Source of the DNA: an uncultured Thermoanaerobaculia bacterium
Lineage (GTDB): Bacteria; Acidobacteriota; Thermoanaerobaculia; Multivoradales; SZUA-115
Reading direction: 5' to 3'
DNA length: 64,000 bases
NCBI GenBank assembly: GCA_964420075.1
Contig: CAYQRE010000010.1
Coordinates: 77,885-141,884 of the forward strand
In this document: piece by piece, positions 1 through 36,505 of the stretch
How the letters are laid out: every line of letters starts with the position of its first letter
Numbering within the stretch: position 1 is the first letter of the stretch
The notes under the pieces: generated by a model
Database searches by the model: none
Told to the model about the DNA's origin: nothing
What the model saw: only the letters and a program-made list of their open reading frames with translations
Made by a program: the position numbers and the translations under genes

Positions 1-1092
1 GGCGCGCTGCTCGACCTGCCGCGCCTGGAGCTGGGCGAGCCAGGGCGCGAGCTCCTGCCCGAGGTCGAGGGCCACGCGCACCGGCAGGGTGTTGATGAAC
101 GGCCCGACGATCGTCTCGACGCCTGGAAGCTCGGCCGGGCGACCGGCCACCGTCGCGCCGAAGACCACCTCGGTGCGCCCCGTCTCCGCGGCCAGGAGCA
201 GCGACCAGGCGCCCTGGACGAGCGTGTTCAAGGTGAGCCGCTCGCGGCGGGCGAGGTCTCGCAGGGCCTCGGAGGTCGCTGCCGGCAACGCCGTGCGGCG
301 GCGGCGACCCTGCCGAAAATCGGCACCGCGACCGTGATGCGCCTCGCCGGCCGCCAACCAGCAAGGCTCGCTGAGCCCGGCCAGCTCGCGCCGCCAGAAG
401 GCCTCGGCGGCGGCCGGGTCCTGGCGCTGCAGCCAGGCGATGTAGTCACGGTAGGCGCGTGCCGGCGGCAGGCGTGGCGCCTTGCCGGCGGCGAGGGCCG
501 AGTAGGCGGCGAACAGCTCCTTGAGCAGCTGGCCCTGGGCCCAACCGTCGATCAGCAGGTGATGCTGGCTCCACACCAGGCGGTGGTCGGCCGGTCCGAG
601 CGCGAAGAGCGCCACCCGCAGCAGGGGGGCTGTGCCGAGGTCGAAGCCGCGCTCGCGATCGGCATCGAGATGGGCGGCGAGGCGGCCCTCCTGCTCGGCG
701 GGCGAGAGTCCCTGCCAGGACTCCTCGTGGAGGGGCAGGGGCACCTCGCGGTAAACCACCTGGACCGGCTTTTCGAGCTCTTCCCAGTAGAAGGCGGTGC
801 GCAGGATGGCGTGGCGGTCGAGCAGGTATTGCCAGGCGCGGGCGAAGGCCGCGTGGTCCAGGGGGCCGCCCAGGCGCAGCGAGAGTTGCACCACGTAGAC
901 CCCCGAGCCGGGGGCGTAGACGCTGTGAAAGAGCATCGCCTGCTGCATCGGCGACAGCTCGTAGACCTGCTCCACCTGGCTCTCGGCGAGCCCCTCGCTC
1001 GCCGCCTCGCCGGCCGCAGTGTCGTGGGCCAAAGAGTCGTCTGGCAGAGTGTCTTCTGCCAAGGTCTCGGTCGCTGGTCTCTCGTCGGTCAT
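1..1092 (-). CDS. NRPS, N-terminal part (DCL-type condensation domain); continues off the left edge
   Basis: My translation from ATG at 1092: MTDERPATET...VEQVYELSPMQQAMLFHSVY...RHAILRTAF...SQHHLLIDGWAQ...VGPFINTLPVRV, open to base 1. The LSPMQxxMLFH start and HHLLIDGW match DCL C domains that follow an epimerase. Absent from the ORF track because it has no stop in the window. Confidence 0.93.
   Translation of the reverse strand, partial: MTDERPATETLAEDTLPDDSLAHDTAAGEAASEGLAESQVEQVYELSPMQQAMLFHSVYAPGSGVYVVQLSLRLGGPLDHAAFARAWQYLLDRHAILRTAFYWEELEKPVQVVYREVPLPLHEESWQGLSPAEQEGRLAAHLDADRERGFDLGTAPLLRVALFALGPADHRLVWSQHHLLIDGWAQGQLLKELFAAYSALAAGKAPRLPPARAYRDYIAWLQRQDPAAAEAFWRRELAGLSEPCWLAAGEAHHGRGADFRQGRRRRTALPAATSEALRDLARRERLTLNTLVQGAWSLLLAAETGRTEVVFGATVAGRPAELPGVETIVGPFINTLPVRVALDLGQELAPWLAQLQARQVEQRA
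1018..1062 (-). repeat. Three imperfect 15-bp tandem units encoding LAEDT/LPDDS/LAHDT in the acidic N-terminal linker of the NRPS
   Basis: Plus strand agtgtcgtgggccaa / agagtcgtctggcag / agtgtcttctgccaa. Confidence 0.6.
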
Positions 1093-1126
1093 TCCCGTTG
1101 TCTCCCCGCGCCCAGGCACCTGCACC

Positions 1127-3541
1127 TCACTCCCCGCGCAGCACCCCCGCCGGATCGGCGAGGGCCCCCTTCAAGGCCCGCGCGCCCACCGTCAACCAGG
1201 CGATCAGCAGGGCCAGCGAACCTCCGGCGAGGAAGCTCCAGGCGCGCAGGGGGGTGCGAAACGCGAAATTGCCCAGCCAGGCGTGCAGCAACCAGTAGGC
1301 GCACGGCCAGGCGACCAGGATGGCGAGCAGCACCAGTACGGTGAACTCGCTCGTCAGCAGCAGCACCACCCGGCCGAGCGAGCTGCCGAGGGCCTTGCGG
1401 ATGCCGATCTCCTTGGCCCGCCGCTCGGTGGCGTAGGAGGCGAGGCCCGACAGCCCCAGGCAGGCGACGAAGATCGCCGCCGCTCCGAAGAAGGCGACCA
1501 ACGCCGCCAACCGTTCCTCGCTGCGGTAGAGGCGGGCCCACTCGTCGGTGAGCTGGAAGGCCTCGAAGGGCTTGCCGGGCGACAGCTGCTTCCAGGCCGC
1601 TTCCAGCCGCTCGAGGGTCGCCGCCTGGCCCTCGGGCGCCAGCCGCAGGTACATGTAGTGGAAGGCGATCGGCCGGATGTGCAGGAGGAGGGGGTTGAGC
1701 GGGAAGCGCAGCGGCCGCTGGTAGAAGTCCTTGACGACGCCGACGATCTTGCCCTTCTTCCAGCCACCCCAGGCGACGTCCTGGCCGAGGGCTGCCGCGG
1801 GGGTACCGAAGCCCCAGGCGGTGACGGCCCTCTCGTTGATCAGGAAGGCCGAGCCCTGGTCCACCTGGTCGGCGGCGACCAGCGGCCGGCCGGCGACCAG
1901 GCCGAGGTGGAAGACGTCCAGGAAGCCCTGGTCGACGATCAACGTGTCGACCGGTGCGAAGCCCTGCCGGCCGGCGATCTGGGCGCCGATGCGCGGCGTC
2001 TCCCGGCCGATCACCAACGACGAGAAGGTCGTGGCCTCGACGCCGGCCACCTGCGCGAGCTCGGCCTTGAGGCCCTCGAAGCGCTCGCGCAGGGCGACGT
2101 CGCGGATCGGCAGCACGAAGACGTCGGTGAGATCGAGACCCAGGCCCTGGCCGCGCATGAAGCGCAGCTGGTCCCACACCACGCCGGTCGCCACCAGGAG
2201 GCTGACGCCGATCGCGAACTGCAGCACGACGAGCACCTTGCGCAGGGTGCCGCGGCCCACGCCGGGAGCGCTCTTGAGCACCTCGACGGGCTGGAACGCG
2301 GAGAGGAAGAAGGCCGGGTAGGCCCCCGCCAGCACCCCGACGGCGACGGCGAGCCCCAGCACGGCGAGGGCGCTCGCCCAGCCCACGGGCAGGCTGATCG
2401 CCTTGCCGGCGAAGGCGTTGAAGGCCGGCAGGGCGAGCCACACCAGCAGCACGGCCAAGGCCATCGCGAGGAGCGAGAGGAGTACTGACTCGCCGAGGAA
2501 CTGCTGGACGAGCTGGCCACGGTGGGCCCCCACCACCTTGCGCACCGCCACCTCGCGCGAGCGCTGGGCGTAGCGCGCCGTCGACAGGTTGACGAAGTTG
2601 ACGCCGGCGATCAGCAGGGTGAGGGCCGCTACCGCCGCGAACAGGTAGACGTAGCCGATGTCGCCGTTGACCTCGTGCTCGAGCAGGAGGTCCGAGTGCA
2701 GGTGGATGGCGGTGAGCGGCTGCAGATGGAGGACCATGGTGGCCCCGGGCACCTTCGGGAAGTGGGCCTCGACGAAGGCCGGCAGGCGCCTGGCGAGGGT
2801 GGCGGCGTCCGCCCCGGGAGCGATCTTCACGTAGGTGTAGGCGTCCGCCAGCCACCACTGATCGAGCGCCACGCGCTGGTCTTTGACGTGCTCGAGGCTG
2901 CTGAGCGAGGCGAGCACGTCGAAGTGCAGGTGCGAGTTGGCCGGCAGGTCGGCCACCACCCCCGTCACCGTGTACTCCTCGTCCGAGAAGCCGGTGTCGA
3001 TGCGCAGCACCTGGCCCACGGCGGCGGCGTCCCCGAAGTAGCGGCGGGCGGCCGACTGCGACAGCACCAGGGTGTTCGGCGCCGCCAGCTGGCCAGCCGG
3101 CTCGCCGGCCAACCACTCGAAGGTCAGCACCGCGAAGAGGCCGGGGTCGGCCCAGAAGAAGCGCTCGTAGTGCTGCCTCTCGCCCCGCCAGCTCACCGCC
3201 ACCCGCCCTGGCAGGCTGCCCTCGAAGTAGGGGAAGAGCCGGCCGGCGGCGACCAATTCGGGCCAGGCGGCCGCGAGCGCTGCGGCCAGCGGTGGCGCCG
3301 TCACCGCGCCGTGCTGGGAGCTCTCGCCCACCTTGACCTCGGCGGTCACCCGGTAGATCCGCGCCGCGTCCCGGTGGAAGCGGTCGTAGGTCAGCTCGTC
3401 GCGCAGGAAGAGCAGCACCATCAGGCAGGAGGCCAGGCCGAGGGCGAGCCCGAGCAGGTGGATCAGCGTGTGGGCCTTGTCCCGGCGGAAGATGCGCAGG
3501 GCGACCGTCACGTAGTGGCTGAGCAATGAGTCCTTGAACAT
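1127..3541 (-). CDS. ABC transporter permease, MacB/FtsX-type duplicated permease (about 804 aa)
   Basis: Start MFKDSLLSHY with GAGGAG SD. Two permease halves carry NFVNLSTARYAQRSREVAVRKVVGA and ERRAKEIGIRKALGS motifs; multiple TM segments and large periplasmic loops; no ATPase domain. Confidence 0.9.
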   Translation of the reverse strand: MFKDSLLSHYVTVALRIFRRDKAHTLIHLLGLALGLASCLMVLLFLRDELTYDRFHRDAARIYRVTAEVKVGESSQHGAVTAPPLAAALAAAWPELVAAGRLFPYFEGSLPGRVAVSWRGERQHYERFFWADPGLFAVLTFEWLAGEPAGQLAAPNTLVLSQSAARRYFGDAAAVGQVLRIDTGFSDEEYTVTGVVADLPANSHLHFDVLASLSSLEHVKDQRVALDQWWLADAYTYVKIAPGADAATLARRLPAFVEAHFPKVPGATMVLHLQPLTAIHLHSDLLLEHEVNGDIGYVYLFAAVAALTLLIAGVNFVNLSTARYAQRSREVAVRKVVGAHRGQLVQQFLGESVLLSLLAMALAVLLVWLALPAFNAFAGKAISLPVGWASALAVLGLAVAVGVLAGAYPAFFLSAFQPVEVLKSAPGVGRGTLRKVLVVLQFAIGVSLLVATGVVWDQLRFMRGQGLGLDLTDVFVLPIRDVALRERFEGLKAELAQVAGVEATTFSSLVIGRETPRIGAQIAGRQGFAPVDTLIVDQGFLDVFHLGLVAGRPLVAADQVDQGSAFLINERAVTAWGFGTPAAALGQDVAWGGWKKGKIVGVVKDFYQRPLRFPLNPLLLHIRPIAFHYMYLRLAPEGQAATLERLEAAWKQLSPGKPFEAFQLTDEWARLYRSEERLAALVAFFGAAAIFVACLGLSGLASYATERRAKEIGIRKALGSSLGRVVLLLTSEFTVLVLLAILVAWPCAYWLLHAWLGNFAFRTPLRAWSFLAGGSLALLIAWLTVGARALKGALADPAGVLRGE

Positions 3542-3564
3542 GGCTCCTCGTGCGCGGCGGACGG

Positions 3565-6500
3565 TCAGCGGCCCTTCGGCGCGGCGGGTGAAGGCCGCCG
3601 GCCGATCTTCTTCATCAGCGTGTCGAGGTCCTTCTGGCTCACCCGCGCCTGGGGAAAATCGGTGGGGGTGAAGGCCGTCGGACCGGGGGCGGCCTCGGCA
3701 GGTGCCCGGCAATGGGCGATGAGGGCGGCGAGAGCGGCGCGGAAGCGTGCACCCCAACCCTCGACCGTGGCGCGAGCCAGCCGCTCTGGCGGGTAGGTCC
3801 AGGTGAGGCGCAAGCGCCCGCCGCTCACCCCGCCGTTGATCTCGAGCAGGTGGGTGCGGCGCTGGCTGGCGGCGCGGGGCGGCCCACCGCGCTCGGCAGC
3901 CGGCGCGAAGAGCGACGAGCCGGCCAAGCCGCGGTCGAGCTGGCCAAGGTAGTTGAAGACCACCTCGGGCGCCGGGATGGCGGCGAGGCGCTCCGCCGTC
4001 GCGGCCTCGCCCAGGTAGCGCAACAGCCCGTAGCCGAGGCCGCCGCGGGGCACCGCCCGCAGCTGCTCTTTGATCGTTCGCAGCTGCTCGCCGGGGGTCC
4101 GCTCGCGGCCGTCGAGGGAGAGCAGCACGGGGTAGAGGGCGGTCAGCCAGCCGACGGTGCGCGAGGCGTCGGCGTCGGGGAAGGCCTCGTCGCGGCCGTG
4201 CCCCTCGAGGTGAAGCCAGAGCGCGGCAGGGCGGCCGCTTGCGCTGCCTCCGTCGGCCGCACCGAGCGCCTGGGTGAGCGCCAAGAGCAGCGCATCGAGG
4301 GTGCTGGCGCGGGTCGCGGCCGGCACCTCCTGGACGAGGGCGCGCGTGGTCTCCTCGTCGAGCTCGACGGTGTGGCTCGCCGCCGCGGCCACAGTGCCGA
4401 AGTCGGCCACGGTGGCCACGTCGGTTGGCGGTGGCTGGTCGGCGCGGCTCCAGTCGGCCGTGGTCGGTTGGGTGGCGGCCGGCGCCAGCGGCGGCGGTAG
4501 GCGCCCCTCGGCGGCTGACCAGTACGGCAGCTCCGCACGGGTCGCGGCCGAGCCCGCCTCCGCCGCGAGCCGCGCCGCCCAGCCGGCGAGGGGCTGCGGC
4601 ACGGCGGGCAGAGCGGGCACCGCGGCCGCCGCCAGGCCCCGGTAGGCGAGCTCGAGGTCACCCAGCAGGATGCGCCAAGAGACGCCGTCGACGATCAGGT
4701 GATGGAGCACCAGGAAGAGCCGCTGCGCGGTGCCCGAGAGCTGGAAGAGGGCCGCCCGCCAGAGCGGCCCCGCCGTGAGGTCGAGGCTGGCCTGGAGGCG
4801 CGCCGCCAGGGCCTCGACGGCGGCGCTCTCGGCGGCGCCGAGGCCGCTCAGGTCGACACGCAGGAGCGGGGTCGGCGCCGTCCCGCTGTACTGGCGCCAG
4901 CGGCCGTCGGCGCGCTGCTCGTAGCGGCAGCGCAGCGCCGTGTGGCGGCGCGCCAGCAAGCCGAGCGCCCGCTCGAGCCGCGCTCCCTCGACGGGCTCGC
5001 TCAAGGTCAGCAGCAAGGATTGGTTGAAGTGGCCCGGCGCGGCGACGTCGAGGTCGAAGAACCAGCGCTGGATGGGCAGCAGGGGCACCTCGCCGTCCAC
5101 CTCGACCGCCTCGTCGCTCGCCGCGCTCGGCCGTACCACCGCCGCCAGCTCGGCCACCGTCTGGTGTTGGAAGAGGTCGCGCACGCCGAAGGCGAGGCCG
5201 GCCTGTTGCGCGCGCGAGACGACCTGGATCGAGAGGATCGAGTCGCCACCCAGCTCGAAGAAGTTGTCCCGCGGGCCCACCCGCTCGACGCCGAGGACCT
5301 GCGCCCAGATCGCGGCGAGCGTGGCCTCGACGCCGCTCGCCGGCTCCTCCACCGCTGCCTCGGCGGTCTCCCAGACCGGCGCCGGCAGGGCTTTCAGGTC
5401 GAGCTTGCCGTTGGCGCTCACCGGCAGCGCGTCGAGGCCCACGAAGGCGGCCGGCACCATGAAGGGGGGTAGCTTCTCGGCCAGGAAGTCGCGCAGTGTC
5501 GCCGCTTCGAGCACCACCCCCGGACGCGCCACCAGGTACGCCACCAGGCGTTTCTCACCGGGGCCGTCGGCGCGCGCCAACACCACCACCTCGGCCACCG
5601 CCGGATGCTCGGCGAGGGCCGCCTGGATCTCGCCGAGCTCGATGCGGAAGCCCCGCACCTTGACCTGGTGGTCGATGCGGCCGAGGAACTCCAGGGCTCC
5701 GTCGGCCCGCCGGCGCACCAGGTCGCCGCTGCGGTAGAGCCGTTCGCCGGGCGCCCCCCAGGGATGCGGCACGAAGCGCTCGGCAGTGGCCGCCGGCCGG
5801 CGCAGGTAGCCGCGGGCCAGGCCCTCGCCGCCGAGCAGCAGCTCGCCCGGCTCACCGAGGGCGAGGGCACCGAGCGAGCGGTCCGCTACGTAGGCCGAGG
5901 TGTTGCCGATCGGCAGGCCGATCGGCACCGTGACGAGGTCCGGCCCAACCGGCCCAACCTCGTGGTAGGTGGCGACGGCGGTGCACTCGGTGGGCCCGTA
6001 GCAGTTGAGCAACCGGCAGGCGGCCCCTCCCTGCTGGGCCAGGGCGAGGGCGCGCGGGTCGGCGGCGTCGCCGCCGAAGAGCACGTCGCGCAGGAAGCCG
6101 AAGGCCCCCGGCTCCTCGCGCACCATCTGGTGAAAGAGGGCGGTGGCGATGCCCATCGCTGTCACCCCCGTGGCGCGCAGGCGCGCGACGAAGACGGCCG
6201 GCGACAGCGTGACCTCCTTCGAGATCACCACCAGCCCGCCGCCGTTGAGCAAGGCCCCCCAGATCTCGAAGGTGGCAGCGTCGAAGCTGATGTTCGACAG
6301 GTGCGCCAGCCGGTCGCCGGGCCCGAGATGGACGTAGTTGGTGTCGCGCACCAGGCGCACCACCGCCTGCTGGGGCACGGCGACCCCTTTCGGCCGTCCC
6401 GTCGAACCCGAGGTGTAGATCACGTAGGCGAGCTCGAGAGAGGAGGCCGGCTTGACCAGCGGCAGGTCCGTCGCCACCGGCCGGGCGGCCAGGGCAGCGA

Positions 6501-9500
6501 CCTCCTCGTCCACCGGCACCAGCCGTTCGCGCACCTCGGGATGCGCCGCGAGGAGGGCCTCCAGCCGCTGCCGGGTGCGGGCGTGGACGAGGATCACCGT
6601 GGCCTGGGTGTCTGCCAGCATGAAGAGCAGGCGGGCGTCCGGGTAGCCGGGGTCGAGGGGCACGTAGGCGGCCCCCGCGGCGAGGATGCCGAGGAGGCTC
6701 GCCACCAGCTCGGCCGAGCGCTCCATCGCCACCCCCACGAGATCGCCCGGGCCCACCCCGAGGTCGGCGAGGCGCCGGCCGAGGCCGCCCGCGGTCGCCG
6801 CCAGCCGGTGGTAGCTCCAGGTCGCCGTCTCGTCGATCACCGCCGCCGCTTCCGGGGCGCGGGCAGCCTGCACCGCGAAGAGCTCGCTCAACCCGGCCGC
6901 GCGGGGGAAGGCGCTCGCCGCGTCGTTCACCTCACAAAGCACCTGCTGGCGCTCGCCGGCCAGCAGCCACGGCAGGGCGGCGAGCGGCGTCTCCGGGTCC
7001 ACGGCGGCGGCCGCCAGCCAGGCGAGCAGGCGGGCCTTCAGGCGCTCGATGGTGGTGGCATCGAAGAGGTCGGCGTCGTGCTCCAGCTGGCCGCGTAGGC
7101 CGCCCGCGGCTGGCCGCAGGGTGAGCGAGAGCTCGAACTTGGCGGTGACCGCGCCCTGCGCGATCGGCGCCAGCGTGAGGCCCGGCAACGCAAGGCCGGC
7201 GAGCGGCGCCTCCTCGAGGGAGAAGGTGGCCTGGAAGAGCGGCGAGCTCGCGAGGTCGCGGTTGGGGGCGATCTCCGCCACCAGCTGCTCGAAGGGCAGG
7301 TCCTGGTGCGCGAAGGCGCCGAGCACCGACTGGCGCACGCGGGCCACCAGCGCTGCCAGGGTCGGCGCACCGCCGAGATCGACGCGCAAGGCCAGGGCGT
7401 TGACGAAGAAGCCGATCAGACCTTCGGTCTCCCGCCGGTTGCGGTTGGCGATCGGGATCCCCACCACCAGCTCGTCCTGCTGCGCCGCCCGCCCCAGAAG
7501 GCCCGCCCACAGGCTCGCCAAGGTGATGAAGCGGGTGGCCTGCAGGCGGCGGCCGAGCGCGTCGAGGCCGGCGGTGAGCTCGGCGGAGATCACCAGCGGC
7601 CGGCTCGCGCCGCGGTAGGTGGGGGCGAGGGGCCGCGGCCGGTCGGTGGGCAGCTCCAGGCGCTGCGGCGCCCCGGCGAGCTGCGCGCGCCAATAGGCCA
7701 GCTGAGAGACCAGCACCTCGCCCTGCAGCCAGGCGCGCTGCCAGGCCGCGAAGTCCGCGTACTGCACGGGCAGGGGCGCGAGCGGCGAGGTCTCCCCGGC
7801 GACGAGGGCCGCATAGAGGCTGGCGACCTCACGTTCGAGGAGCCCCATCGACCAGCCGTCCGCGATGATGTGATGGCAGGTCATCAGCAGGGCGTGGTCG
7901 GCGGCGGCCAGGCGCAGGAGCGCCAGGCGGAAGAGAGGCCCACGTGCGAGGTCGAAGGGGCGCCTGGCCTCGCGGCGAGCCAGGGTGTCGAGGGTCGCCG
8001 CGCGCGCGGTGCCGGGGAGCGCCGCGAGGTCGACGACGGGGAGCGGCGGGCGCCAGCGCGGCCGAACCTCCAGCCTGGGCCGCCCCGCGGTGGCCGGGAA
8101 GCTGGTGCGCAGCACCTCGTGGCGGCCGGCGATGGTGGCGAAGACCTGGCGCAGTGCCGCCACCCGCAGCTCACCGCCGAGGCGCACCGCAGCCGGGATG
8201 TTGTAGGCGGGGTTGCCCGGGCTGAGCTGGTCGACGATCCACAGCCGCTGCTGGGCGAAGGCCAAGGGCAGCTCCTCGCCGTCCTGTCGCGGGCAGGGCT
8301 CGATGGGTGGCGCCTCGGGCTGGCCGCCGCGGCGCAGCTCGGCGATGACCGCCGCCAGGCCGGCGACCGTCGGGGCCTCGAAGAGGCGGCGCACCGGCAG
8401 CTCGACGTGGAACACCTCACGCAGCCGCGACACCAGACGGATGCCGAGCAGGGAATGGCCGCCGAGAGAGAAGAAGTCTTCCCCGGCGCTCACCCGCTCG
8501 CGGCCCAGGAGCTCGGCGAAGAGCTCGGCGAGCAGTCCTTCGACGGCACCGCGCGGGGCCTCGCCGGTGCTGGTGCCAGCCGCAGCCCAGTCCGGCGCCG
8601 GCAGGGCGCGGCGATCGAGCTTGCTCGACGGGGTCAGGGGGAGCGCCGCGAGGCGGACGAGCGCCGCCGGTACCATGGCGTCCGGCAGCGCCTGGCGGAG
8701 GGCCTGGCGCCAGTCGTCCAGCTCCGCGCCGCCGGCGGGGGCCACCACGAAGGCGACCAGCTGCCCCTCGCCGCGGGGGTCGGGGCGCACGGCGACGGCG
8801 GCCTCCCGCACCCCGGGAAGGCGGGTGAGCGCCGCTTCCACCTCGGCGAGCTCGATGCGGTGGCCGCGCACCTTGACCTGCTGGTCGCGGCGGCCCAGGA
8901 ACTCCAGGTTGCCGTCCGCATGGCGGCGGGCGAGATCACCGCTGCGATAGCAACGCCCGCCGGCCGGGCCGCCGCCGGGGCTGCCGGCGAGCGGGTCGGG
9001 CATGAAGCGGTCGGCGGTCAGCCCGGGCCGGCCGAGGTAGCCGCGGGCGAGGCCGGCGCCACCGATCCACACCTCGCCGGGGATGCCGACCGGGACCAGC
9101 TCGAGGTCCGCACCGAGGAGGGCCACCCGGCAGTTGGCGACCGGCAGCCCGAGCGGGGCCTTGCGCTCCGGCGCCGGCGCGCGGCCGACGTCGTAGAAGG
9201 TGGCGCAGACCGTGGCCTCGGTGGGGCCGTAGCCGTTGACGACGGTGAGGCCGGGAAGCGCCGCCGCGAGCCCGCTGAGCACCGGCTCACGGATCGGCTC
9301 GACGCCCACCAGCAGGCGGGCGAGGGGATGGGGGGCGGCTGCGGGCGCGCTCACCCGCGCCAGCAGCTCGCTGAGGAGGAACGGCGGCAGGTAGGCGCTG
9401 CGGATCGCGCGCGCTGCGAGCCACGGCAGCAAGGCCTCGGCGCGCACGCGCTCTTCCTCCCCGGGCACCACGAGGGTGCCGCCGTAGGCGAGGGCGGCGA

Positions 9501-14553: not shown

Positions 14554-14564
14554 CTCCCCTCCCC

Positions 14565-17500: not shown

Positions 17501-20500
17501 CGCGCGCGAGGAGCCCGCTCGCGACCTCCTCGCGCCGCCCGGCGGCGAGGCCGCAGAGGTCGACGGTGGCGAGCCGCGGCCGGCCCGGCGGGCGCAGACG
17601 CTGCACCGGCTTGCCTGCCACCGTGCCGAAGGTGGCGCGCAGCACGGCGTGGCGGCGCTCGATCTCGGCCAGGGCGCGGGCCAGGGCTGCCGGAGCGAGG
17701 TTGCCGCCGAGATGCACCGCCGCCGGCATGTTGTAGGCACTGCTGCCGGGCTCCAGGCGATCGAGGAACCACAGGCGCTGCTGCCCGAACGAGAGCGGCG
17801 GCCCGGCCTCACCGTCGGTGCCGCGGCGGGGGATCGCCGCCAGGGCCCCCCCGGTGGCCTCCGCTCGCGCGTAGCCCAGCCGCGCCGCGAGCTCCCAGCT
17901 CGCCGCGCCGAGCTCACCCACGTTCGACGCCGCGCGGTCCGCGACGGCTGCCTCGATCCGCCCGTAGCGGTGGAACTTCGGGTCTCCCATCATGCGCCCG
18001 GCGGCGTGCAGGCCGTCGGTCATCCGGCGGCCCTCGTAGGGGCGCAGCATCGCCGGCGCGAAGTCGAGGCCGAGGAAGGCGCAGAGGTGCTCGATCACCC
18101 GCTGCGGCGAGCGCACCAGCTCCTCGAAGCAGAGCCGGTGCTGCCGCTCGGCGGGCACCCCCGCCAGGTGGTCGAGGATGTTGGCGTGCGCCAGCCGCCA
18201 CACCATCTCGGCCTGGCGGCGGGCCGGCAGCGGGAAACGATAGACCTCGTCGAAGCTCGCCTCGAGGTAGGAGTGGATGGTCGCCGCCGGATGGCGCACC
18301 AGGTGGACGTAGAGGGGCGCCTCGAACCACGCCTCGGCGCGCGCGAGGGTCGCGCGGTCGAGGGCGTAGCGGGGCGTCTTGTCGACCAGCAGGCGGGGGG
18401 CCGCCATCGCCTGCAGCTGGCGGTAGAGCTCCTGGCTCGGTGCGTCACGCGCGACGGCCGCGGCCACCCAGGCCGCTGCGGCCTCGGCAGTCGAGCCGGC
18501 GAGCTCCATCACCGCCCGCAACAGCCCCTCGGCGCCGAAGCTGTCGCGGCCGGCGAAGGCCTGGGCGCGGGCGCCGAGAGTCGTGAACCCGAGGAGCTCG
18601 AGCTCGGGCGGCGCGAAGAGACCGGGGTGGCCGGCGAGCATCACCCGCAGCAGGGTCGAGCCGGAGCGAAACGGCGACAGCAGGAAGACGGCGGGCGGGT
18701 TGCGCTCCGCCGGGGCCGCCGACGGCGGCGAGAAGCGGCCCGCGAGGTGGGCGGTGAGGACGGCGAGGTCGGCGGCGTCATCCCGCGGCGCCGCGGCGGC
18801 ATCCGCCGCGGGGTGCGCGATGAGCGCTGGCGCCAGCCAGCCCGCCGCTGCGAGGGCCGGGCGGTAGCTCGCGGTGAGGAAGGCGGCGAAGCGGCGGATG
18901 GTCGGATGGTCGAAGAGGGCCATCACGTAGACGATCGCCCCCAGCTCGCTCTGCAGCCGGTTGATCAGCAGCGCCCCCTGGATCGAGTCGCCACCGAGGG
19001 CGAAGAAGTCGTCCTCGGCGCCGGGGGCGGGCACCCCCAGCTGGGCGCTCCACAGAAGGGCCAAGCGCTCCTCGACCGCGCCGGCGGGCGCGACCCAGGA
19101 GCGAACGGCCCCGGCACCCTCCTCGGCCGGCGCCGGCAAGGCGCGCCGGTCCACCTTGCCGCTCGGCGAGAGCGGCAACGCTGGCAGGTTCACGAAGACG
19201 GCCGGCAGCATGTAGTCCGGCAACCGAGCGGCGAGGTGCGAGCGCAGCGTCGCGACCTCCGGCGCGGCACCAGCCGCCACCAGGTACGCCACCAGGCGCC
19301 CGTCGCGCAGCACCACCACCGACTCGCGCACCGCCGGATGGGCATCGAGCGCCGCCTCGATCTCCCCGAGCTCGATGCGCAGGCCGCGCAGCTTGACCTG
19401 GTGGTCGAGGCGGCCGAGGAAGTCGATGGCGCCGTCTGGCCGGAGGCGGGCCAGGTCGCCGGTAGCGTAGGCCCGGCCACCCGCCCCTTCGGGGGTCGCC
19501 AGCGGGTCCGGCACGAAGCGCTCGGCGGTGAGGCCCGGCCGACCGCGGTAGCCGCGCGCCAGGCCGACCCCGGCGATGTGCAGGTGGCCGGCGGCGCCGA
19601 GGGCCACCGGCCGGCCGGCGCGGTCGAGGACCGCGAGGCGCAGGTTGCTGATCGGGCGGCCGATCGGCACGGCGCGGCCGTCGCCGGCGCGCTCGCGGCC
19701 GCAGGGCCATGCGGTGACGTCGACCGCCGCCTCGGTGGGGCCGTAGAGGTTGTGGAGCTCGGCCGGCAAGAGTGCCGCCGCCCGCTCCACGAGATCGCGG
19801 GGCAGCGCCTCGCCGCTCGCGATCAGCCGCCGCAGCCCGCGGCAGCTCGCCGCCCGCGGGTCGGCGAGGAAGACCTGCAGCATCGAGGGCACGAAGTGCA
19901 GGGTGGTGACCGCCTCGGCGCGGATCAGCTCCACGAGGTAAGCGCTGTCCTGGTGACCGCCGGGGCGGGCGAGGACCAGCTTCGCCCCCACCCGCAGGGG
20001 CCAGAAGAGCTCCCACACCGAGACGTCGAAGCTGATCGGCGTCTTCTGCAGCACCGCCTCGCCGGCAGCGAGCCCGTATTCGGCCTGCATCCAGGCCAGG
20101 CGGTTGACGATCGCCCGGTGGCAGACCATCACCCCTTTCGGCCGCCCGGTGGAACCCGAGGTGAAGAGTACGTAGGCCAGGTTCTCGGGACCGAGGCCGC
20201 TCGCCGGCGGTGCCGCCGCCTCGGCCGGCATGGCCTCATCGTCGAGGAGCAGCCAGCGGCCGGCGGGCAGCCTCTCCACCAGGGCCGCCTGGGTCAACCC
20301 CAAGAGGGCGCCGCCGTCCGCCAGCATGATCGCCAGGCGCTCCGCGGGGTAGGCGGGATCGAGGGGCAGGTAGGCCCCACCCGCCTTGAGCACGGCGTAG
20401 AGCGCCACCATCAGCTCGCAGGAGCGCTCGGCCGCCACCCCCACTACCACCTCGGGGCCGACGCCGAGCCCGCGCAGGCGATGGGCGAGGGCGTTGGCGC

Positions 20501-23500
20501 GGCGGTCGAGCTCGCCGTAGCTCAGGATGCGGCCCTCGGCGACCAGCGCCACCGCCGCGGGGGTGCGCGCCGCCTGCGCCTCGAAGGGGGCCAGCAGCAG
20601 GCCGGCATCGAGGCCGGCGACGGCCGTGTCGTTCCACTCGGCCGCCAGCTGCTGGCGCTCGCCCGGCGCCAGGAGCGGCAGCTCCCCGAGCGGTAGGCGC
20701 GGGTCCGCCACGGCGGCGGCGAGGAGGCGCGTGAAGGCGCCCGTCCAGCGGTCGACCGTGGTGGCATCGAAGAGGTCGCGGCTGTACTTGGTGACCGCGA
20801 CGAGCCCGTCGCTGGCGGGCTGGAGCGACAGCGCCAAGTCGAAACGGGCGGTGCCGGTGTCGACCTCCTCGGCGATCGCCGTGAGGCCCGGCGGCGGCGT
20901 CACCAGCAGGGGCGCGTTCTGCAGCACCAGCATCACCTGCACGAGTGGCGTGTGGGCGAGGTTGCGCTCCGGCACCAGCTCGTCGACCAAGCGCTCGAAG
21001 GGCACCTCGCGGTCGGCGAGGGCGGCGAGCACCCCCTGGCGGCAGCGGCCGAGGAGGGCGAGGAAGTCGAGGTCCGGCGCCAGCTGGGTGCGCAGGGGCA
21101 GGGTGTTGACGAAGAGGCCGACCATCGCCTCGAGCTCCGGGCGGTCGCGGTTCGCCACCGCCGAGCCGACCACCAGATCCCGCTGGCCAGTGAGCCGGTA
21201 GAGCAGGGCCTGGAAGGCGGCGAGGTAGACCATGAACGGGCTGGCGTCCTGGGCGGCGGCGAGGGCGGCGACGCCGGCGACGAGCGGTGCCGGTAGGGCA
21301 TGCCGGCGATGGCCGCCGCGGAAGCTCTGCTGCGCCGGCCGCGGGCGGTCGGCAGGCAGGCTCACCAGGGGTGGCGCCCCGGCCAGCCGCGCGCGCCAGG
21401 CGGCGAGCTGGGCTACCGCGTGCGGCTCGGCGAGGCGCGCCTGCTGCCAAGCGGCGAAGTCCCCGTAGTCGATCTCGAGGGCGGCGAGGGGCGCGGCCGC
21501 CCCCGCGGCGTTCGTGGCGTAGAGGGCCATCAGCTCGCGCAGCAGCACGCCGAACGACCAGCCATCGCTCACGATGTGATGGGCGGCGACGAGGAGGGCG
21601 TGTTCGTCCTCGCCCAGGCGGGCGACGGCAGCGCGCCAGAGCGGCCCACGAGCGAGCGAGAAGGGCCGGCGCGAACCCTGCCGGAGGACCGCGGCGAGCG
21701 CCTGCGGGCAGCCCTGGAGGTCCACCATCGGGATGGCTGGTCCTCCCGGTGCCGCCGGGGCCACCACCTGCACGGCGGCGCCGGCGTCCACGTGGATCGT
21801 GCTGCGCAGGGCCTCGTGGCGGCACACCAAGCCACGCCAGGCAGCTGCCAGCGGGGCGAGCCGCAGGGGCCCGGCGAGCTGCACCCCGACGCCGAGGTTG
21901 TAGGCCGGGTTGCCGGGATCCAGCTGGTCGAGAAACCACAGGCGGCACTGCGGCGACGACAGCGGCAACGGACGGTCGCGGGGTTGGCGCGGCAGGGGCC
22001 CGGCGGCGGGCGCCGCTGCCGTGGCGAGCCGGGCAGCGAGGGCGGCGAGGGTGGGCGCCGCGAAGAGCTCTGCGAGCGAGACGGCGAGGCCGATGCCTTC
22101 CAGGCGGGCGAGGAGCTGGCTGCCGCGCACCGAGTCCCCACCGAGGGCGAAGAAGCTGTCGGTGGCCCCCACGCTGCCGGCCGGCAGGCTCAAGACCTCC
22201 TCCCAAAGGCGGGCGAGGAGCACCTCCTCGGCGCTGCGCGGCGCGAGCTGCGCCGGCCCGGCGGCGAGGGGGCCGGCGAATTGCCCGACCGCCGGCAGCT
22301 CGCCGGCCAGGAAGAGCTGGCGGCAGGCGCTGCGCTGGACCTTGCCGCTCGTCGTCTTGGGCACGCCGCCGGGCTTGACCAGCACCAGCGTGGCGAGCTC
22401 GATCTCGTGTTCCTCCGCCACCGCCTGGCGGGCGGCGAGCGCCACTTCCTCCGGCACGGCGCGGGCGCGCAGATCGATCTCCTGCACCACCACCAACCGT
22501 TCCTCGCCGGCCGCCTCGACGGCGAAGGCGGCGACGCCACCCGGGCGCATGGCGGGGTGACTGCGCTCGACGCTGGCCTCGATGTCCTGCGGGTAGAGGT
22601 TGCGGCCGCGGATCAGGATCAGGTCCTTGCGGCGGCCGGTGACGAAGAGCTCGCCGCCAGCGAGGATGCCGAGGTCGCCCGTGCGCAGGTAGCTGCCGGG
22701 CTCACCCGCGAGCCGGGCGCCGAAGGCCTCGGCGGTGGCCTCCTCGCGCTGCCAGTAGCCGGCGGCGACCCCGGCCCCGGCCACCCACAGCTCGCCGACG
22801 CTGCCCGGCGGGCACGGCTCGCCGCGCTCCGCGTCCACCACCCGCACGGTGACGCCGCTCGGCATTTGGCCGCTGCTCACCAGCTCGCGCACCGCCGGCG
22901 CCTCGCCCGCCGCGGCGGGCTCCACCCGACCCGCGGCGAGCGCCTCGCTCGCCAGCCGCAGGCGCGCCGGTGAGGCGGCGGCACGAACGCCTGAAACCAG
23001 CAACGTCGCCTCGGCGAGGCCGTAGCAGGGAAAGAATGCCGTGGCCCGAAAGCCGGCACCGGCAAGGGCAGCCGCGAAGCGATCGAGGGTCTCGGCGCGC
23101 ACCGGCTCGGCGCCGTTGAAGGCCACCCGCCAGGCGGCGAGGTCGAGGCCGGCGCAGTCTCCCTCCGTGAGGCGGCGCGCACACAGGTCGTAAGCGAAGT
23201 TCGGTCCGCCGCTCACCGTCGCGCGGTGGCGGTCCACCGCCGCCAACCAACGCGCCGGCCGCTGCAGGAAATGAAGCGGCGACATCAAGATGCAGCGCGC
23301 ACCGAGGAAGAGGGGATGGAGCAAGCCGCCGATCAGGCCCATGTCGTGGTAGAGCGGCAACCAGCTCACCACCACCGTGCGCTCATCGGTGCGGAAGGCC
23401 TCGGCGATCATCCGCTGGTTGGCCAGCAGGTTGCCGTGGGTGACCATCACGCCCTTGGGCTCGCTGGTCGAGCCCGAGGTGTACTGCAAGAAGGCGAGGT

Positions 23501-24107
23501 CCTGCGGCCCGGGCGCCGCCGGGCGCCAGCTGGCCGCCAGCGCGCGGTCGAGGCGATCGGTGGCGAGGCGCGGCAGCGTGGTGGTGGCCGGCCGCTCACG
23601 CCCGAGGCGCTCCCAAGTGCTCTCCAGGCTGGCCGCCGTGAGCACCGCCGCGGGCGCCGCGTCGGCGACGATGGACAGCAAACGCGGCAGGCCGCGGCTG
23701 CCCGTGGGCGGGTAGGCGGGCACCGCCACCAGCCCGGCGTAAAGGCAGCCGAGGAAGCTCACGGCATAGTCGAGGCCGGGAGGCAGCAGGAGCAGCACGC
23801 GCGCCGCCGGCGCCAGCCGCTGCTGGGCGAGCCATGCCGCCACGGCCCGCGCGGCACGATCGAGCTCGCCATAGCTCAGCGCCTGCTCGTCGCCGTCGCC
23901 GTCCGCGAGCCAGACGCAGGCCACGCGCTCCGCATGGGCGCCGGCGCGCCAGCGCAGGAGATCCACCAGAGAGTTGACCTCGGCGGGAGCGCCCTCGGGG
24001 CCGCGGGACGGTGGGCTGCGGGTCTCTGCTGGTCTCGACATCACGCTGCGTTCGCTGGGTCTCTTGCTGGGATCGCTCGGAGTAGGGCCGCCCATGGAGA
24101 CAACCAA
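14565..24107 (-). CDS. Lipoinitiating NRPS: FAAL-ACP-C-A(Ser)-PCP-sulfotransferase-C-A(Gly)-PCP-docking domain
   Basis: FAAL LAFLQYTSGST, WLPLYHDMGLIG, CYGLAEATL, GRRKDLI, KTTSGK with the FAAL-specific insertion. A1 code read as DVWHISLVDK (Ser); A2 DISQLGVVWK (Gly-like). Internal ST motifs; Arg-rich C-terminal docking helix. True start uncertain (ATG 24041, 24095 or 24107). Confidence 0.95.
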   Translation of the reverse strand: MVVSMGGPTPSDPSKRPSERSVMSRPAETRSPPSRGPEGAPAEVNSLVDLLRWRAGAHAERVACVWLADGDGDEQALSYGELDRAARAVAAWLAQQRLAPAARVLLLLPPGLDYAVSFLGCLYAGLVAVPAYPPTGSRGLPRLLSIVADAAPAAVLTAASLESTWERLGRERPATTTLPRLATDRLDRALAASWRPAAPGPQDLAFLQYTSGSTSEPKGVMVTHGNLLANQRMIAEAFRTDERTVVVSWLPLYHDMGLIGGLLHPLFLGARCILMSPLHFLQRPARWLAAVDRHRATVSGGPNFAYDLCARRLTEGDCAGLDLAAWRVAFNGAEPVRAETLDRFAAALAGAGFRATAFFPCYGLAEATLLVSGVRAAASPARLRLASEALAAGRVEPAAAGEAPAVRELVSSGQMPSGVTVRVVDAERGEPCPPGSVGELWVAGAGVAAGYWQREEATAEAFGARLAGEPGSYLRTGDLGILAGGELFVTGRRKDLILIRGRNLYPQDIEASVERSHPAMRPGGVAAFAVEAAGEERLVVVQEIDLRARAVPEEVALAARQAVAEEHEIELATLVLVKPGGVPKTTSGKVQRSACRQLFLAGELPAVGQFAGPLAAGPAQLAPRSAEEVLLARLWEEVLSLPAGSVGATDSFFALGGDSVRGSQLLARLEGIGLAVSLAELFAAPTLAALAARLATAAAPAAGPLPRQPRDRPLPLSSPQCRLWFLDQLDPGNPAYNLGVGVQLAGPLRLAPLAAAWRGLVCRHEALRSTIHVDAGAAVQVVAPAAPGGPAIPMVDLQGCPQALAAVLRQGSRRPFSLARGPLWRAAVARLGEDEHALLVAAHHIVSDGWSFGVLLRELMALYATNAAGAAAPLAALEIDYGDFAAWQQARLAEPHAVAQLAAWRARLAGAPPLVSLPADRPRPAQQSFRGGHRRHALPAPLVAGVAALAAAQDASPFMVYLAAFQALLYRLTGQRDLVVGSAVANRDRPELEAMVGLFVNTLPLRTQLAPDLDFLALLGRCRQGVLAALADREVPFERLVDELVPERNLAHTPLVQVMLVLQNAPLLVTPPPGLTAIAEEVDTGTARFDLALSLQPASDGLVAVTKYSRDLFDATTVDRWTGAFTRLLAAAVADPRLPLGELPLLAPGERQQLAAEWNDTAVAGLDAGLLLAPFEAQAARTPAAVALVAEGRILSYGELDRRANALAHRLRGLGVGPEVVVGVAAERSCELMVALYAVLKAGGAYLPLDPAYPAERLAIMLADGGALLGLTQAALVERLPAGRWLLLDDEAMPAEAAAPPASGLGPENLAYVLFTSGSTGRPKGVMVCHRAIVNRLAWMQAEYGLAAGEAVLQKTPISFDVSVWELFWPLRVGAKLVLARPGGHQDSAYLVELIRAEAVTTLHFVPSMLQVFLADPRAASCRGLRRLIASGEALPRDLVERAAALLPAELHNLYGPTEAAVDVTAWPCGRERAGDGRAVPIGRPISNLRLAVLDRAGRPVALGAAGHLHIAGVGLARGYRGRPGLTAERFVPDPLATPEGAGGRAYATGDLARLRPDGAIDFLGRLDHQVKLRGLRIELGEIEAALDAHPAVRESVVVLRDGRLVAYLVAAGAAPEVATLRSHLAARLPDYMLPAVFVNLPALPLSPSGKVDRRALPAPAEEGAGAVRSWVAPAGAVEERLALLWSAQLGVPAPGAEDDFFALGGDSIQGALLINRLQSELGAIVYVMALFDHPTIRRFAAFLTASYRPALAAAGWLAPALIAHPAADAAAAPRDDAADLAVLTAHLAGRFSPPSAAPAERNPPAVFLLSPFRSGSTLLRVMLAGHPGLFAPPELELLGFTTLGARAQAFAGRDSFGAEGLLRAVMELAGSTAEAAAAWVAAAVARDAPSQELYRQLQAMAAPRLLVDKTPRYALDRATLARAEAWFEAPLYVHLVRHPAATIHSYLEASFDEVYRFPLPARRQAEMVWRLAHANILDHLAGVPAERQHRLCFEELVRSPQRVIEHLCAFLGLDFAPAMLRPYEGRRMTDGLHAAGRMMGDPKFHRYGRIEAAVADRAASNVGELGAASWELAARLGYARAEATGGALAAIPRRGTDGEAGPPLSFGQQRLWFLDRLEPGSSAYNMPAAVHLGGNLAPAALARALAEIERRHAVLRATFGTVAGKPVQRLRPPGRPRLATVDLCGLAAGRREEVASGLLARGARRPFDLARGPLWRLSLLRLAAGEHQLLLNLHHIVCDGWSVALLTRELAALYAAFVAGAPSPLAPLPLDYADFAAWQRAHLAGPAYGELVAYWRRQLAGAPPLLQLPTDRPRPAVETHRGTRLPFRLPPALVAAARVLGSRHGATLFMVLLAALTALLRRLSGETDIAVGAPVAGRNRTEIEGLIGLFMNTLVLRTALPGDPPFADLLAAARQASLAAARHEELPFEKLVEELGVERSLGHAPLFVVMLALQNAPPARLALPGLALERLDLTTDSAKFDLTVDLAEQPDGGLAGSLELNLDLFDRTTIDRFGGQLAALLASAVARPAAPLAQLAALTAAERQQLVVEVNDSAAPLPAAGSVWEWVAATAARDPARQAVRAVGAELSYGALIAQATAWAAELARRGVGPEVAVAICSERTPAMLVAVLAVLAAGGAYVPLDPALPAARLAHMLADSGASLVLAERALAATLDAAGAELAARGGPPPAVAWLEAAPPPAPGPWRSPAHGESVAYVIYTSGSTGRPKGVSVRQRGVLNYLSTMAERPGMTADDVVMAVTTLSFDIAVSELLLPLVVGARIELVRREVVADPRELAAALTVAGATVMQATPTTFGLLLDGGWAGQPGLKVLCGGEPLPRSLADRLLPRVGELWNVYGPTETTVWSTAERLGATPEVSIGRPLANTTVHLAGRHGELAPLGAAGELLIGGEGLARGYHGRAGLAAERFVPDPWGAAGARLYRTGDLARRLADGRLEHLGRRDHQVKIRGFRLELGEIEAVLLAHPAVRQAVVVVHGTGSAARLVAYVVQEAGGDLAWDTLRTYLAETLPPPMVPSLALFLPALPLLPSGKVDRRGLPEPGHERPQLGAAFVSPQSEAERRIAAIWQQVLGVERVGVHDNFFDLGGHSLAAAEVHGRLREEMGSELPLLELFRHPTVQGLARRLQAAAGLDEPLAGQLGGLHERAREEREARERRRRALARRR
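17870..18700 (-). other. Sulfotransferase domain embedded in the NRPS between PCP1 and C2 (boundaries approximate)
   Basis: AVFLLSPFRSGSTLL (5'-phosphosulfate loop), PPEL, VDKTPRY, HLVRHPAATIHS (3'-phosphate binding), FEELVRSPQRVIEHLCAFLGL, GDPKF. Confidence 0.88.
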
Positions 24108-36469: not shown

Positions 36470-36505
36470 GGCCCGCCGCTCCGCGGCCCTCCCCGGGGGC
36501 CCTGC

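Follow-up and report, generated by a model that had tools for sequence, protein, structure and literature searches.

A hybrid NRPS-PKS assembly line with a sulfotransferase domain behind its serine-type module in an uncultured Thermoanaerobaculia bacterium

Among the closest described systems in which a sulfotransferase (ST) acts within an assembly line are CurM (curacin A) and the olefin synthases (OLS), with the β-sulfated acyl-ACP of CurM remaining stable before the TE acts. To our knowledge, all biochemically characterized CurM-type STs install a leaving group and not a lasting sulfate, which counts against retention of a sulfate by a related domain. In the oci cyanopeptolins, the sulfate is placed on glyceric acid. 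Characterized dehydrating C domains form a separate clade. Sulfonation of a PCP-bound intermediate in trans has been described for SulN of the sulfazecin pathway (PMC11298585), and FAAL-ACP-C lipoinitiation has been reviewed (PMC11837247, PMC9113097). One cyanobacterial olefin synthase paper, which cites oci cyanopeptolin papers, considers STs lacking a TE to lead probably to sulfated metabolites (PMC11730487). Our literature search found neither an NRPS-made natural product with O-sulfoserine nor a published study of a Ser-loading module with a built-in sulfotransferase.

Here we describe a 64,000-nucleotide stretch of DNA (the window), which carries a real orphan cluster, namely the intact front half of an uncharacterized hybrid NRPS-PKS assembly line. 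The best hits of its NRPS domains suggest as host a high-GC, uncultured soil bacterium of the Acidobacteriota, probably of the class Thermoanaerobaculia. We lean towards the reading in which the five modules in the window open a colinear lipopeptide line with a retained Ser O-sulfate, continuing leftwards beyond the window.

Gene order and domain organization

The genes lie on the minus strand in the order p1, p2, permease, and an NRPS gene cut by the left edge. Pfam searches of whole proteins and overlapping pieces (E 1e-24 to 1e-236, which excludes chance) returned the same domain orders that a preliminary description had read from the letters, FAAL-ACP-C-A-PCP-ST-C-A-PCP for p1 and KS-AT-ACP-C-A-PCP-C-A-PCP-E for p2; the permease and the DCL-type C placed after p2 were borne out by Pfam and by C-domain grouping. 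In the ORF list, the reading frames of p1 (3180 aa) and p2 (3667 aa) are uninterrupted, the two genes are translationally coupled, with the listed p2 start overlapping the p1 stop (GTGA), and every ORF of the window is intact. The HHxxxDG motif is present in 6/6 C/E domains and the adenylation cores of the A domains align, as in modular NRPSs. The first gene comprises:

14565..24107, minus: p1 gene, 3180 aa as listed; true start probably between 24041 and 24107
22290..23954, minus: FAAL, p1 aa 52-606; Pfam AMP-binding and AMP-dom_DIP2-like
22026..22217, minus: ACP fused to FAAL, p1 aa 631-694; PP-binding
20646..21968, minus: C1, p1 aa 714-1154; LCL-like; HHIVSDGWS; predicted to couple acyl-ACP with Ser
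19155..20585, minus: A1, p1 aa 1175-1651; code DVWHISLVDK, Ser
18876..19067, minus: PCP1, p1 aa 1681-1744; PP-binding
17928..18737, minus: ST, CurM/OLS-type, PAPS-dependent; Pfam Sulfotransfer_3, aa 1805-2017, 3.5e-24
16464..17798, minus: C2, p1 aa 2104-2548; LCL type; HHIVCDGWS
14964..16400, minus: A2, p1 aa 2570-3048; code DISQLGVVWK, Gly-like
14685..14876, minus: PCP2, p1 aa 3078-3141; PP-binding

The FAAL domain matches the NCBIfam fatty-acyl-AMP-ligase models at 1e-138 to 1e-117, as against 3.6e-56 for amino-acid adenylation, and its top PDB matches are FAALs (7r7f, 1.4e-171; 3kxw, 4.5e-138); with the ACP and C that follow, this upholds the proposed FAAL-ACP lipoinitiation. The assignment of Ser to the first and a Gly-like residue to the second module agrees with both the codes and the solved relatives, EntF (5e-117) and Txo2 (4e-164) being among the best for A1, and the Gly-activating AB3403 matching A2 at 1.2e-93, nearer than the remaining A domains of the window. 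The second gene comprises:

3565..14568, minus: p2 gene, 3667 aa, KS-AT-ACP-C-A-PCP-C-A-PCP-E
13372..14493, minus: KS, p2 aa 26-399; Cys-His-His motifs QTACS, HGTGT, NLGH
12118..12933, minus: AT, p2 aa 546-817; GHSVGE and HAFHS, malonyl type
11569..11760, minus: ACP of the PKS module, p2 aa 937-1000
10138..11499, minus: C3, p2 aa 1024-1477; LCL-like
8620..10077, minus: A3, p2 aa 1498-1983; code DVWYLGGVCK
8344..8532, minus: PCP3, p2 aa 2013-2075
6940..8274, minus: C4, p2 aa 2099-2543; LCL-like
5404..6879, minus: A4, p2 aa 2564-3055; code DAFGLGCAVK
5137..5322, minus: PCP4, p2 aa 3083-3144
3697..5094, minus: E, p2 aa 3159-3624 (C-type); HHLIVDGVSW; TIGR01720 1.4e-39

The KS motifs named earlier (NDKD, QTACS, EAHGTGT, NLGH) and both AT motifs are all read in the p2 translation, the latter supporting malonyl selection. 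A Cys-His-His KS directly after PCP2 and an AT with GHSxG and HAFH characterize a hybrid NRPS-PKS, and the placement of the KS behind an NRPS carrier suggests that it takes a peptidyl chain. No KR, DH, or ER is present in the PKS module, as the AT-to-ACP gap is only about 120 aa. The A3 code is nearly matched in a syntenic relative (DVYYLGGVC), and A4 has the DAF.LG prefix typical of A domains for aliphatic residues. The terminal E domain stands on both its motif and TIGR01720.

The absences reported for the window also hold: tblastn found no TE in it, no MbtH motif is present, and a scan of the ORFs to the right of the cluster, which took in most, not every, small ORF, revealed no PAPS-synthesis genes. 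The absence of PAPS genes from the window counts against the proposed sulfation route. No close characterized relative was found, in line with the preliminary description, the best full-length relative being 62% identical.

The embedded sulfotransferase and the fate of the sulfate

The solved homologs of the ST are the CurM and OLS sulfotransferases (4gox, 2.4e-43; 4gbm, 9.7e-41; PDB). The domain keeps the RSGST PAPS loop and the counterparts of CurM Arg39, Glu60, and Lys133 (CurM numbering, which agrees with that of the 4gbm chain once its 3-residue tag is subtracted); in a set of 151 NRPS-embedded STs, at least 99% do likewise. By homology and PAPS/catalytic residues it is thus of the CurM/OLS type, except that the His62 position is occupied by Glu, as in most NRPS STs; this replacement was counted against the ST proposal. 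A complete CurM/OLS-type ST-TE unit was rejected, since the ST precedes C2 and the window has no TE. In architecture, an NRPS-embedded ST that lacks a partner TE, the line fits the oci-type in-line class, whose product would keep the sulfate.

A-PCP-ST-C and A-PCP-ST-TE modules are widespread in metagenomes, with 1,104 cluster representatives found at a threshold of E<=1e-30; the module type is common and not unique to this locus. Ser/Thr codes were found in 47/105 ST-adjacent A domains, compared with 14/106 non-adjacent ones of the same proteins (OR 5.3, p=3.8e-7). A Ser code precedes the ST in 9/9 related proteins with an FAAL-ACP-C or ACP-C front end, and in 9/11 ST-adjacent A domains of the retrieved loci. 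Among the best representatives there are 33 A-PCP-ST-TE termini, 10/33 with Ser/Thr codes; one, L040, is C-A(Ser)-PCP-ST-TE.

From the domain order, the most likely early product would be fatty-acyl-Ser(O-sulfate)-Gly-(β-keto C2)-X-D-Y-…. The FAAL would adenylate a free fatty acid and load the fused ACP, after which Ser on PCP1 would be N-acylated by C1. The in-cis ST, with PAPS, may then O-sulfonate the β-hydroxyl of the (acyl-)Ser on PCP1, a thioester that would be chemically analogous to the β-hydroxyacyl-ACP substrate of the CurM ST. The sulfate would be kept, and C2 would hand acyl-Ser(OSO3-) to the Gly-like residue on PCP2; retention is proposed, by an indirect argument, from the ordinary LCL-type C that comes next in place of a CurM-type TE. 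KS-AT-ACP would add one unreduced malonyl unit, giving a 4-amino-3-oxobutanoyl unit, and two more amino acids would join, the second epimerized. Tyr-like codes stand beside the ST in 12 A domains, and, as an aryl sulfate cannot be eliminated, they suggest that this ST family makes retained sulfate esters. A precedent for retention is the in-line ST of the oci cyanopeptolin synthetase.

The ST may instead activate Ser as in CurM, O-sulfonation being followed by β-elimination, either spontaneously on the thioester or base-catalyzed by C2, to give dehydroalanine (acyl-Dha-Gly-…), which might serve at a later stage in a Michael-type cyclization. We regard this course as doubtful. In its favor, the two nearest solved relatives of the ST, CurM and OLS, are activating STs, sulfate leaves readily when placed β to an acidic thioester α-proton, the A-PCP-ST-TE termini common in the family represent the CurM arrangement moved to an NRPS, and at the active-site positions compared no difference was seen between STs before C and STs before TE. 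Against it, the C domains after ST are LCL-like in 73/73 cases, C2 among such ordinary domains, with ordinary post-PCP C domains as its nearest neighbors and without the extra His of the NocB kind; where a Tyr-like or Gly code precedes the ST, as it does in part of the family, no elimination product can form; dehydrating C domains, as noted above, cluster apart; sulfated acyl-ACP persists in CurM until the TE; and sulfate is retained in oci. C2 as a dehydrating (modified-amino-acid) C was rejected, as it has the sequence LNLHHIVCDGWS and falls among the LCL domains, the clade being compared by description only.

Extended to the whole family, the leaving-group reading, which we likewise consider unlikely, would have CurM-type STs of Ser/Thr modules yield dehydroalanine/dehydrobutyrine where a C follows, and C-terminal enamides, by decarboxylative elimination, at A(Ser/Thr)-PCP-ST-TE termini. 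If true, nonribosomal peptides would acquire dehydro residues by two routes not described before, both widely used by uncultured Acidobacteriota.

Non-Ser/Thr A domains precede about 36% of ST-to-C modules, two Gly codes included; hence the newly loaded residue does not in every case bear the acceptor hydroxyl, which counts against the favored reading. The ST could act on another hydroxyl of the tethered intermediate, e.g., of a 3-hydroxy fatty acyl chain, or be inactive or skipped, in line with the use of 3-hydroxyacyl thioesters by the CurM and OLS STs, the hydroxyl-free substrates (Gly or Val-type codes) before some STs, and the replaced His62. This appears improbable, as Ser/Thr codes are strongly enriched beside STs, internal non-lipoinitiated modules included, the PAPS loop and catalytic residues are kept, and the domain is preserved at 59-72% identity across diverged clusters.

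The permease and the continuation leftwards

Downstream of p2, two further features were identified:

1127..3541, minus: permease, 804 aa, ADOP-like; MacB_PCD and FtsX, each twice (Pfam)
1..1092, minus: start of the next NRPS gene; 38-aa leader, DCL-type C (LSPMQQAMLFH, HHLLIDGW); runs off the left edge

In its duplicated MacB_PCD and FtsX architecture the permease appears to resemble ADOP/MacB proteins. Membership in ADOP (acidobacterial duplicated orphan permease, NCBIfam TIGR03434) is not supported, as the score of 275.8 bits lies below the 622.3 cutoff despite a full-length alignment (11-804 vs 5-803). No ATPase gene adjoins it in the window; the syntenic relative carries a permease and an ABC ATPase at the orthologous position. 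It is the probable exporter of the product, in the proposed scheme an anionic lipopeptide.

The left-edge C spans positions 1-322 of 456 of the Condensation profile. Among its nearest neighbors, 8/24 stand immediately behind an E domain (9 if one whose E lies further upstream is included), compared with none of those of C1-C4, and post-E C domains score nearer to it, in agreement with the DCL-type C predicted after E. The D-configured chain would pass to this domain, in the protein beyond the permease gene, and the line would then run through several further modules outside the window. Such a continuation, also predicted earlier, agrees with a Logan contig extension and with at least three further modules after the permease in the syntenic relative (51-71% identity per domain). 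The suggested retrieval of the left flank succeeded in part: Logan contigs identical to the window added 372 nt and extended the gene to 488 aa, reaching only the C-A linker.

Homologs of the left-edge C are often N-terminal in NRPS genes without an upstream E, or follow a TE, and the window has no TE; the left-edge gene might therefore start a separate line, or the cluster might be decayed, the window making a short lipo-tetrapeptide-ketide that is otherwise released. We consider this very improbable, since p2 terminates in E and lacks a release domain, the left-edge C belongs with the post-E (DCL) domains, the window ORFs are all intact, and the order E / permease / (ATPase) / C-A-PCP… is kept in the syntenic relative.

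Comparison with known systems

The window ST shares with the CurM/OLS ACP-ST-TE units homology (E 1e-41 to 1e-43), the PAPS loop with the Arg39, Glu60, and Lys133 equivalents, and a position directly behind a carrier protein with a β-hydroxy thioester. It differs in that the carrier is a Ser-loaded NRPS PCP, the next domain is C and not TE, and His62 is Glu; decarboxylative olefin formation is impossible at this position. OciA (Planktothrix cyanopeptolin, oci) likewise has an ST within an NRPS and is described as yielding a retained sulfate ester in the side chain; in contrast, it is cyanobacterial and, compared by description only, uses glyceric acid via a GA domain and not A-domain-loaded Ser. 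As proposed for the window line, sulfazecin SulN uses PAPS to sulfonate an NRPS intermediate on its carrier protein ahead of chain release; however, it is free-standing and N-sulfonates a diaminopropionate amine. Dehydrating or β-lactam C domains (NocB C5, microcystin-type modified-amino-acid C) also face a peptidyl-Ser/Thr donor on the upstream PCP, whereas C2 has a plain HHxxxDG and belongs to the LCL group, and any leaving group here would come from the ST. Finally, the daptomycin- and puwainaphycin-type lipopeptide synthetases have the same FAAL and ACP, after which comes a C that N-acylates the first residue; in the window line, in contrast, both of these form part of the NRPS protein by fusion, C1 is LCL-like and not a classical starter C, and the first residue would be further modified by the ST.

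Layout, limits and predicted domain functions

The window's leftmost 24 kb, whose GC content (72-77%) is slightly over that of the sequence to its right (67-75%), carries four co-directional minus-strand genes:

14565..24107, minus strand: p1, lipoinitiation and first two NRPS modules, 3180 aa as listed, uninterrupted
3565..14568, minus strand: p2, PKS module and two further NRPS modules, 3667 aa, uninterrupted; its listed start overlaps the p1 stop
1127..3541, minus strand: permease gene, 804 aa, MacB_PCD and FtsX each twice (Pfam)
from 1092 to beyond the left edge, minus strand: next NRPS gene, starting 34 nt past the permease gene

Domain order was fixed by Pfam searches of the whole proteins and of overlapping pieces, and reads FAAL-ACP-C-A-PCP-ST-C-A-PCP / KS-AT-ACP-C-A-PCP-C-A-PCP-E / MacB_PCD/FtsX twice / C… (C, A and PCP domains of p1 and p2 are numbered 1-4 in this order; ST, sulfotransferase). 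This is exactly the order given in the preliminary description, and, as stated there, no TE, MbtH motif or PAPS-synthesis gene was found among the scanned window ORFs. A scan for promoters and terminators upstream of p1 found none. The genes to the right of 24.1 kb are of the housekeeping type (BNR protein, cyclophilin, NCS1 permease, BshC, Dus, MtnA, signal peptidases) and include a minus-strand row at 55650-61854 encoding bactofilin, ParA, RsmG/GidB, Jag (R3H), YidC, and YidD; the right limit of the cluster therefore lies at about 24.1 kb. Since this row is a classic origin-proximal gene set, the biosynthetic cluster is located about 35 kb from a probable replication origin. Standing apart from the NRPS cluster, an HMG-CoA-synthase-like gene (+), an AstE/AspA-like gene (-), and a divergent thiolase-fold KS-like gene (-) adjoin at 34637-39310.

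The loading domain of p1 belongs to the fatty acyl-AMP ligases (FAALs), as it matches NCBIfam FAAL models at 1e-138 to 1e-117 compared with 3.6e-56 for the amino-acid adenylation model, and its best solved relatives in the PDB are 7r7f (1.4e-171), 3kxw (4.5e-138), and FadD23/32/28. Adenylation codes were read by GrsA-PheA numbering, using a reference segment that reproduces all nine published positions, and were then re-derived on a 118-sequence MAFFT alignment. The A1 code, DVWHISLVDK, is a Ser code (EntF: DVWHFSLVDK), and A2, DISQLGVVWK, shares seven of ten positions with the Gly code DILQLGLIWK, the other three being small or aliphatic swaps. Solved relatives agree with the Ser and Gly-like readings: A1 is far ahead of the other A domains against EntF (5e-117), Txo2, and Txo1, the crystallized modules of the latter two teixobactin synthetase proteins being presumably Ser-specific, and A2 matches the Gly-specific AB3403 at 1.2e-93 (other A domains, 5.1e-65 to 7e-69). 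No substrate was assigned to A3 (DVWYLGGVCK) or A4 (DAFGLGCAVK), whose codes gave no confident match and whose PDB neighbors were uninformative.

The KS carries the Cys/His/His motifs QTACS, EAHGTGT, and NLGH together with NDKD, and the AT carries GHSVGE and the malonyl signature HAFHS; the AT-ACP spacing of only about 120 residues leaves the PKS module without a reductive domain. HHxxxDG is kept in all six C-type domains, the last of which in p2 shows HHLIVDGVSW and matches TIGR01720, a region specific to E domains.

Probable continuation beyond the left edge

To assign the C domain that opens the left-edge gene, we drew its 24 nearest neighbors from 243 C domains of related loci. Eight of them directly follow an E domain (nine with one having an E domain further upstream) and nine lie at protein N-termini; among the same 243 domains, no nearest neighbor of C1-C4 is preceded by an E domain. 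The two post-E C domains of a second set scored nearer the left-edge C than C4, and 81 of 84 post-PCP C domains scored nearer C4. The left-edge C is therefore of the DCL type, matching the E domain that ends p2.

An exact look-up of the permease returned only short Logan contigs; three match the window at 100% identity, and all end 372 nt past its left edge, at the C-A linker of the left-edge gene. NCBI records place the window's proteins on a contig of 141,996 bp. A scan with the left-edge protein of GTDB representative genomes and JGI metagenome contigs returned no identical contig, the best relatives there being 54-63% identical and derived mostly from Thermoanaerobaculia MAGs. Judging by best hits of the NRPS domains, the ADOP-like permease, and GC content, the host probably belongs to this class. 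The closest full-length relative of p1 (P0128, 62% identity over 2,326 aa) is encoded on ERZ25039541 contig_104271, from which a syntenic cluster was pieced together from two fetched stretches (L099 and L100), with 51-71% identity per domain to the window. Its first gene encodes FAAL-ACP-C-A(Ser)-PCP-ST-C-A(Ser-like)-PCP, followed by KS-AT-[about 530 residues]-ACP / C-A(DVYYLGGVC)-PCP-C-A-PCP-E, and, after the E domain, by permease / ABC ATPase / C-A-PCP-C-A-PCP-C-A(Ser)-PCP-C…. By this synteny, the line in the window most likely has at least three further modules leftwards, in keeping with the preliminary view that it continues past the edge.

The two clusters differ in three respects. The second residue is Ser-like in the relative and Gly-like in the window, and the AT-ACP insert is present only in the relative. 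This insert (~530 residues, 21943-23555 of the merged sequence) contains a degenerate Rossmann motif, YLVTGQAGF, and may be an inactive or degenerate KR. The relative also has an ABC ATPase gene (L100, 9345-10001), which separates the permease from the NRPS gene that follows, whereas the corresponding stretch of the window, 1093-1126, is merely a 34-nt gap, so the window permease is an orphan. The latter can be aligned to the ADOP model over its full length, but its score of 275.8 bits is below the curated cutoff of 622.3 bits. Conservation of the permease position across all relatives was rejected, as it was seen only in the syntenic relative and L096. Upstream of p1, the neighbor in the window is a divergent BNR-repeat gene, whereas in L006, L093, and L098 an adh_short/KR (short-chain dehydrogenase) gene directly precedes the FAAL-NRPS gene. 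In the long contigs of the ERZ250395xx assemblies (L005, L006, L092-L094, L099-L100), many NRPS genes are frameshifted and have their domains spread over neighboring frames; these contigs look like uncorrected long-read assemblies, and gene calls there thus understate protein lengths.

The sulfotransferase and its module in other NRPSs

The best solved relatives of the p1 ST are the two polyketide-pathway activating STs, those of olefin synthase (4gox, 2.4e-43) and CurM (4gbm, 9.7e-41); the next PDB matches, tyrosylprotein sulfotransferases, have E values of ~0.4. The RSGST PAPS loop is kept in the window ST, as are the residues aligned to CurM Arg39, Glu60, and Lys133; the same holds for no fewer than 99% of 151 related STs embedded in NRPSs. 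An inactive ST, or one with another acceptor than the preceding residue, appears improbable to us. The column of CurM His62 is occupied by Glu in the window ST and in 117 of the 151 NRPS-embedded STs. In place of His62 of the PKS STs CurM and OLS, these proteins have Glu or Asp, irrespective of whether C or TE follows; the replacement is a family-level active-site difference between NRPS and PKS STs.

When all 1.84 billion cluster representatives were searched with the ST domain by HMMER, 4,121 proteins matched at E<=1e-3, and 1,104 reached E<=1e-30. The best 143 full-length proteins, many from Thermoanaerobaculia and other soil lineages, are almost all NRPSs in which a PCP immediately precedes the ST. 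Many ST homologs, from several phyla, are free-standing carrier-protein-ST didomain proteins (e.g., P0093 and P0111, about 420-450 aa). When counts among the best 143 were limited to STs with a recognizable A domain two positions upstream, a C domain followed in 59 and a TE in 33. The A code preceding the 59 ST-to-C modules is Ser in 20-21, Thr in 17, and Tyr-like in about five, the rest being assorted and including two Gly codes. Within the same proteins, Ser/Thr codes occur in 47/105 ST-adjacent versus 14/106 non-adjacent A domains (OR 5.3, Fisher p=3.8e-7), and Tyr-like codes in 12 and 3, respectively. A strict Ser/Thr rule was rejected, as this is an enrichment and not absolute. In the fetched loci, Ser codes precede nine of 11 STs and a Thr code one; all relatives whose front end is FAAL-ACP-C or ACP-C (P0128-P0132, P0134, P0135, P0139, P0217) have a Ser code before the ST, as do L005, L006, and L093.

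The obvious reading of these codes is that the ST would sulfonate the side-chain hydroxyl of the residue on the preceding PCP. Bound to its PCP, Ser forms a beta-hydroxy thioester, the functional arrangement on which CurM ST also acts. Several STs are preceded by the code DIWEITADDK (DIWE[IL]TADDK in the P-series proteins; e.g., L062, 163-2886), presumably Dab-like, which suggests that some modules N-sulfonate a side-chain amine.

Fate of the sulfate and comparison with known systems

We lean towards retention of the sulfate on the Ser-bound chain. The domain after the ST is a C domain and not a CurM-type TE, and all 73 post-ST C domains, C2 included, are of the ordinary LCL type, the nearest neighbors of C2 being plain post-PCP C domains; a specialized post-ST clade was rejected on these grounds. 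Elimination of the sulfate to give dehydroalanine seems to us distinctly less probable, although every biochemically studied member of the CurM/OLS-type ST family installs a leaving group and a literature search found no report of O-sulfoserine made by an NRPS. An ordinary C2 argues against it, showing no sign of adaptation for alpha-proton abstraction and lacking a NocB-like extra His. NRPS termini that read A(Ser/Thr)-PCP-ST-TE, frequent among relatives, also speak for elimination. Found as C-A(Ser/Thr)-PCP-ST-TE in L040 (= L009; 3632-6949), P0151, P0163, P0171, and others, they put the ST-TE arrangement of CurM onto an amino-acid module and, by analogy, could release peptides with a C-terminal enamide by decarboxylative sulfate elimination. 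Retention is further favored by the Tyr-like codes before STs, which imply aryl sulfates that are not eliminable, and by precedent. Only one NRPS with an in-line ST has been published, the oci cyanopeptolin synthetase, and its product presumably bears a sulfated glyceric acid side chain. Citing the oci work, a study of cyanobacterial olefin synthase states that ST homologs lacking a TE probably yield sulfated metabolites (PMC11730487).

Across collections including NCBI and UniRef, the nearest relatives reach at most about 72% identity for the ST and about 62% for p1, which makes a high-identity MIBiG match unlikely, although MIBiG may contain an entry of low identity that shares the module order. 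The preliminary interpretation as an orphan acyl-Ser(sulfo?)-Gly-ketide-X-D-Y lipopeptide line was essentially right, the cluster being both real and orphan. Full-text searches returned no study of a C-A(Ser)-PCP-ST-C module and nothing relevant on STs in NRPS Ser modules, O-sulfoserine peptides, or sulfated lipopeptides.

Settling the fate of the sulfate would show what chemistry a large set of biosynthetic genes from metagenomes encodes: anionic sulfated lipopeptides if it is kept, dehydroamino acids or enamides if it is eliminated, and in either case a portable tailoring domain for NRPS engineering. The locus is a good test case because both p1 and p2 are intact. Hybrid NRPS-PKS lipopeptide clusters are common, and an orphan one is unremarkable in itself; its parts (FAAL lipoinitiation, a minimal malonyl PKS module within an NRPS, the E/DCL pair, and a MacB-type exporter) belong to known kinds. 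For the C-A(Ser)-PCP-ST-C module we found no characterized counterpart, and the main interest attaches less to this one locus than to the NRPS sulfotransferase module it represents, which is widespread and unstudied.
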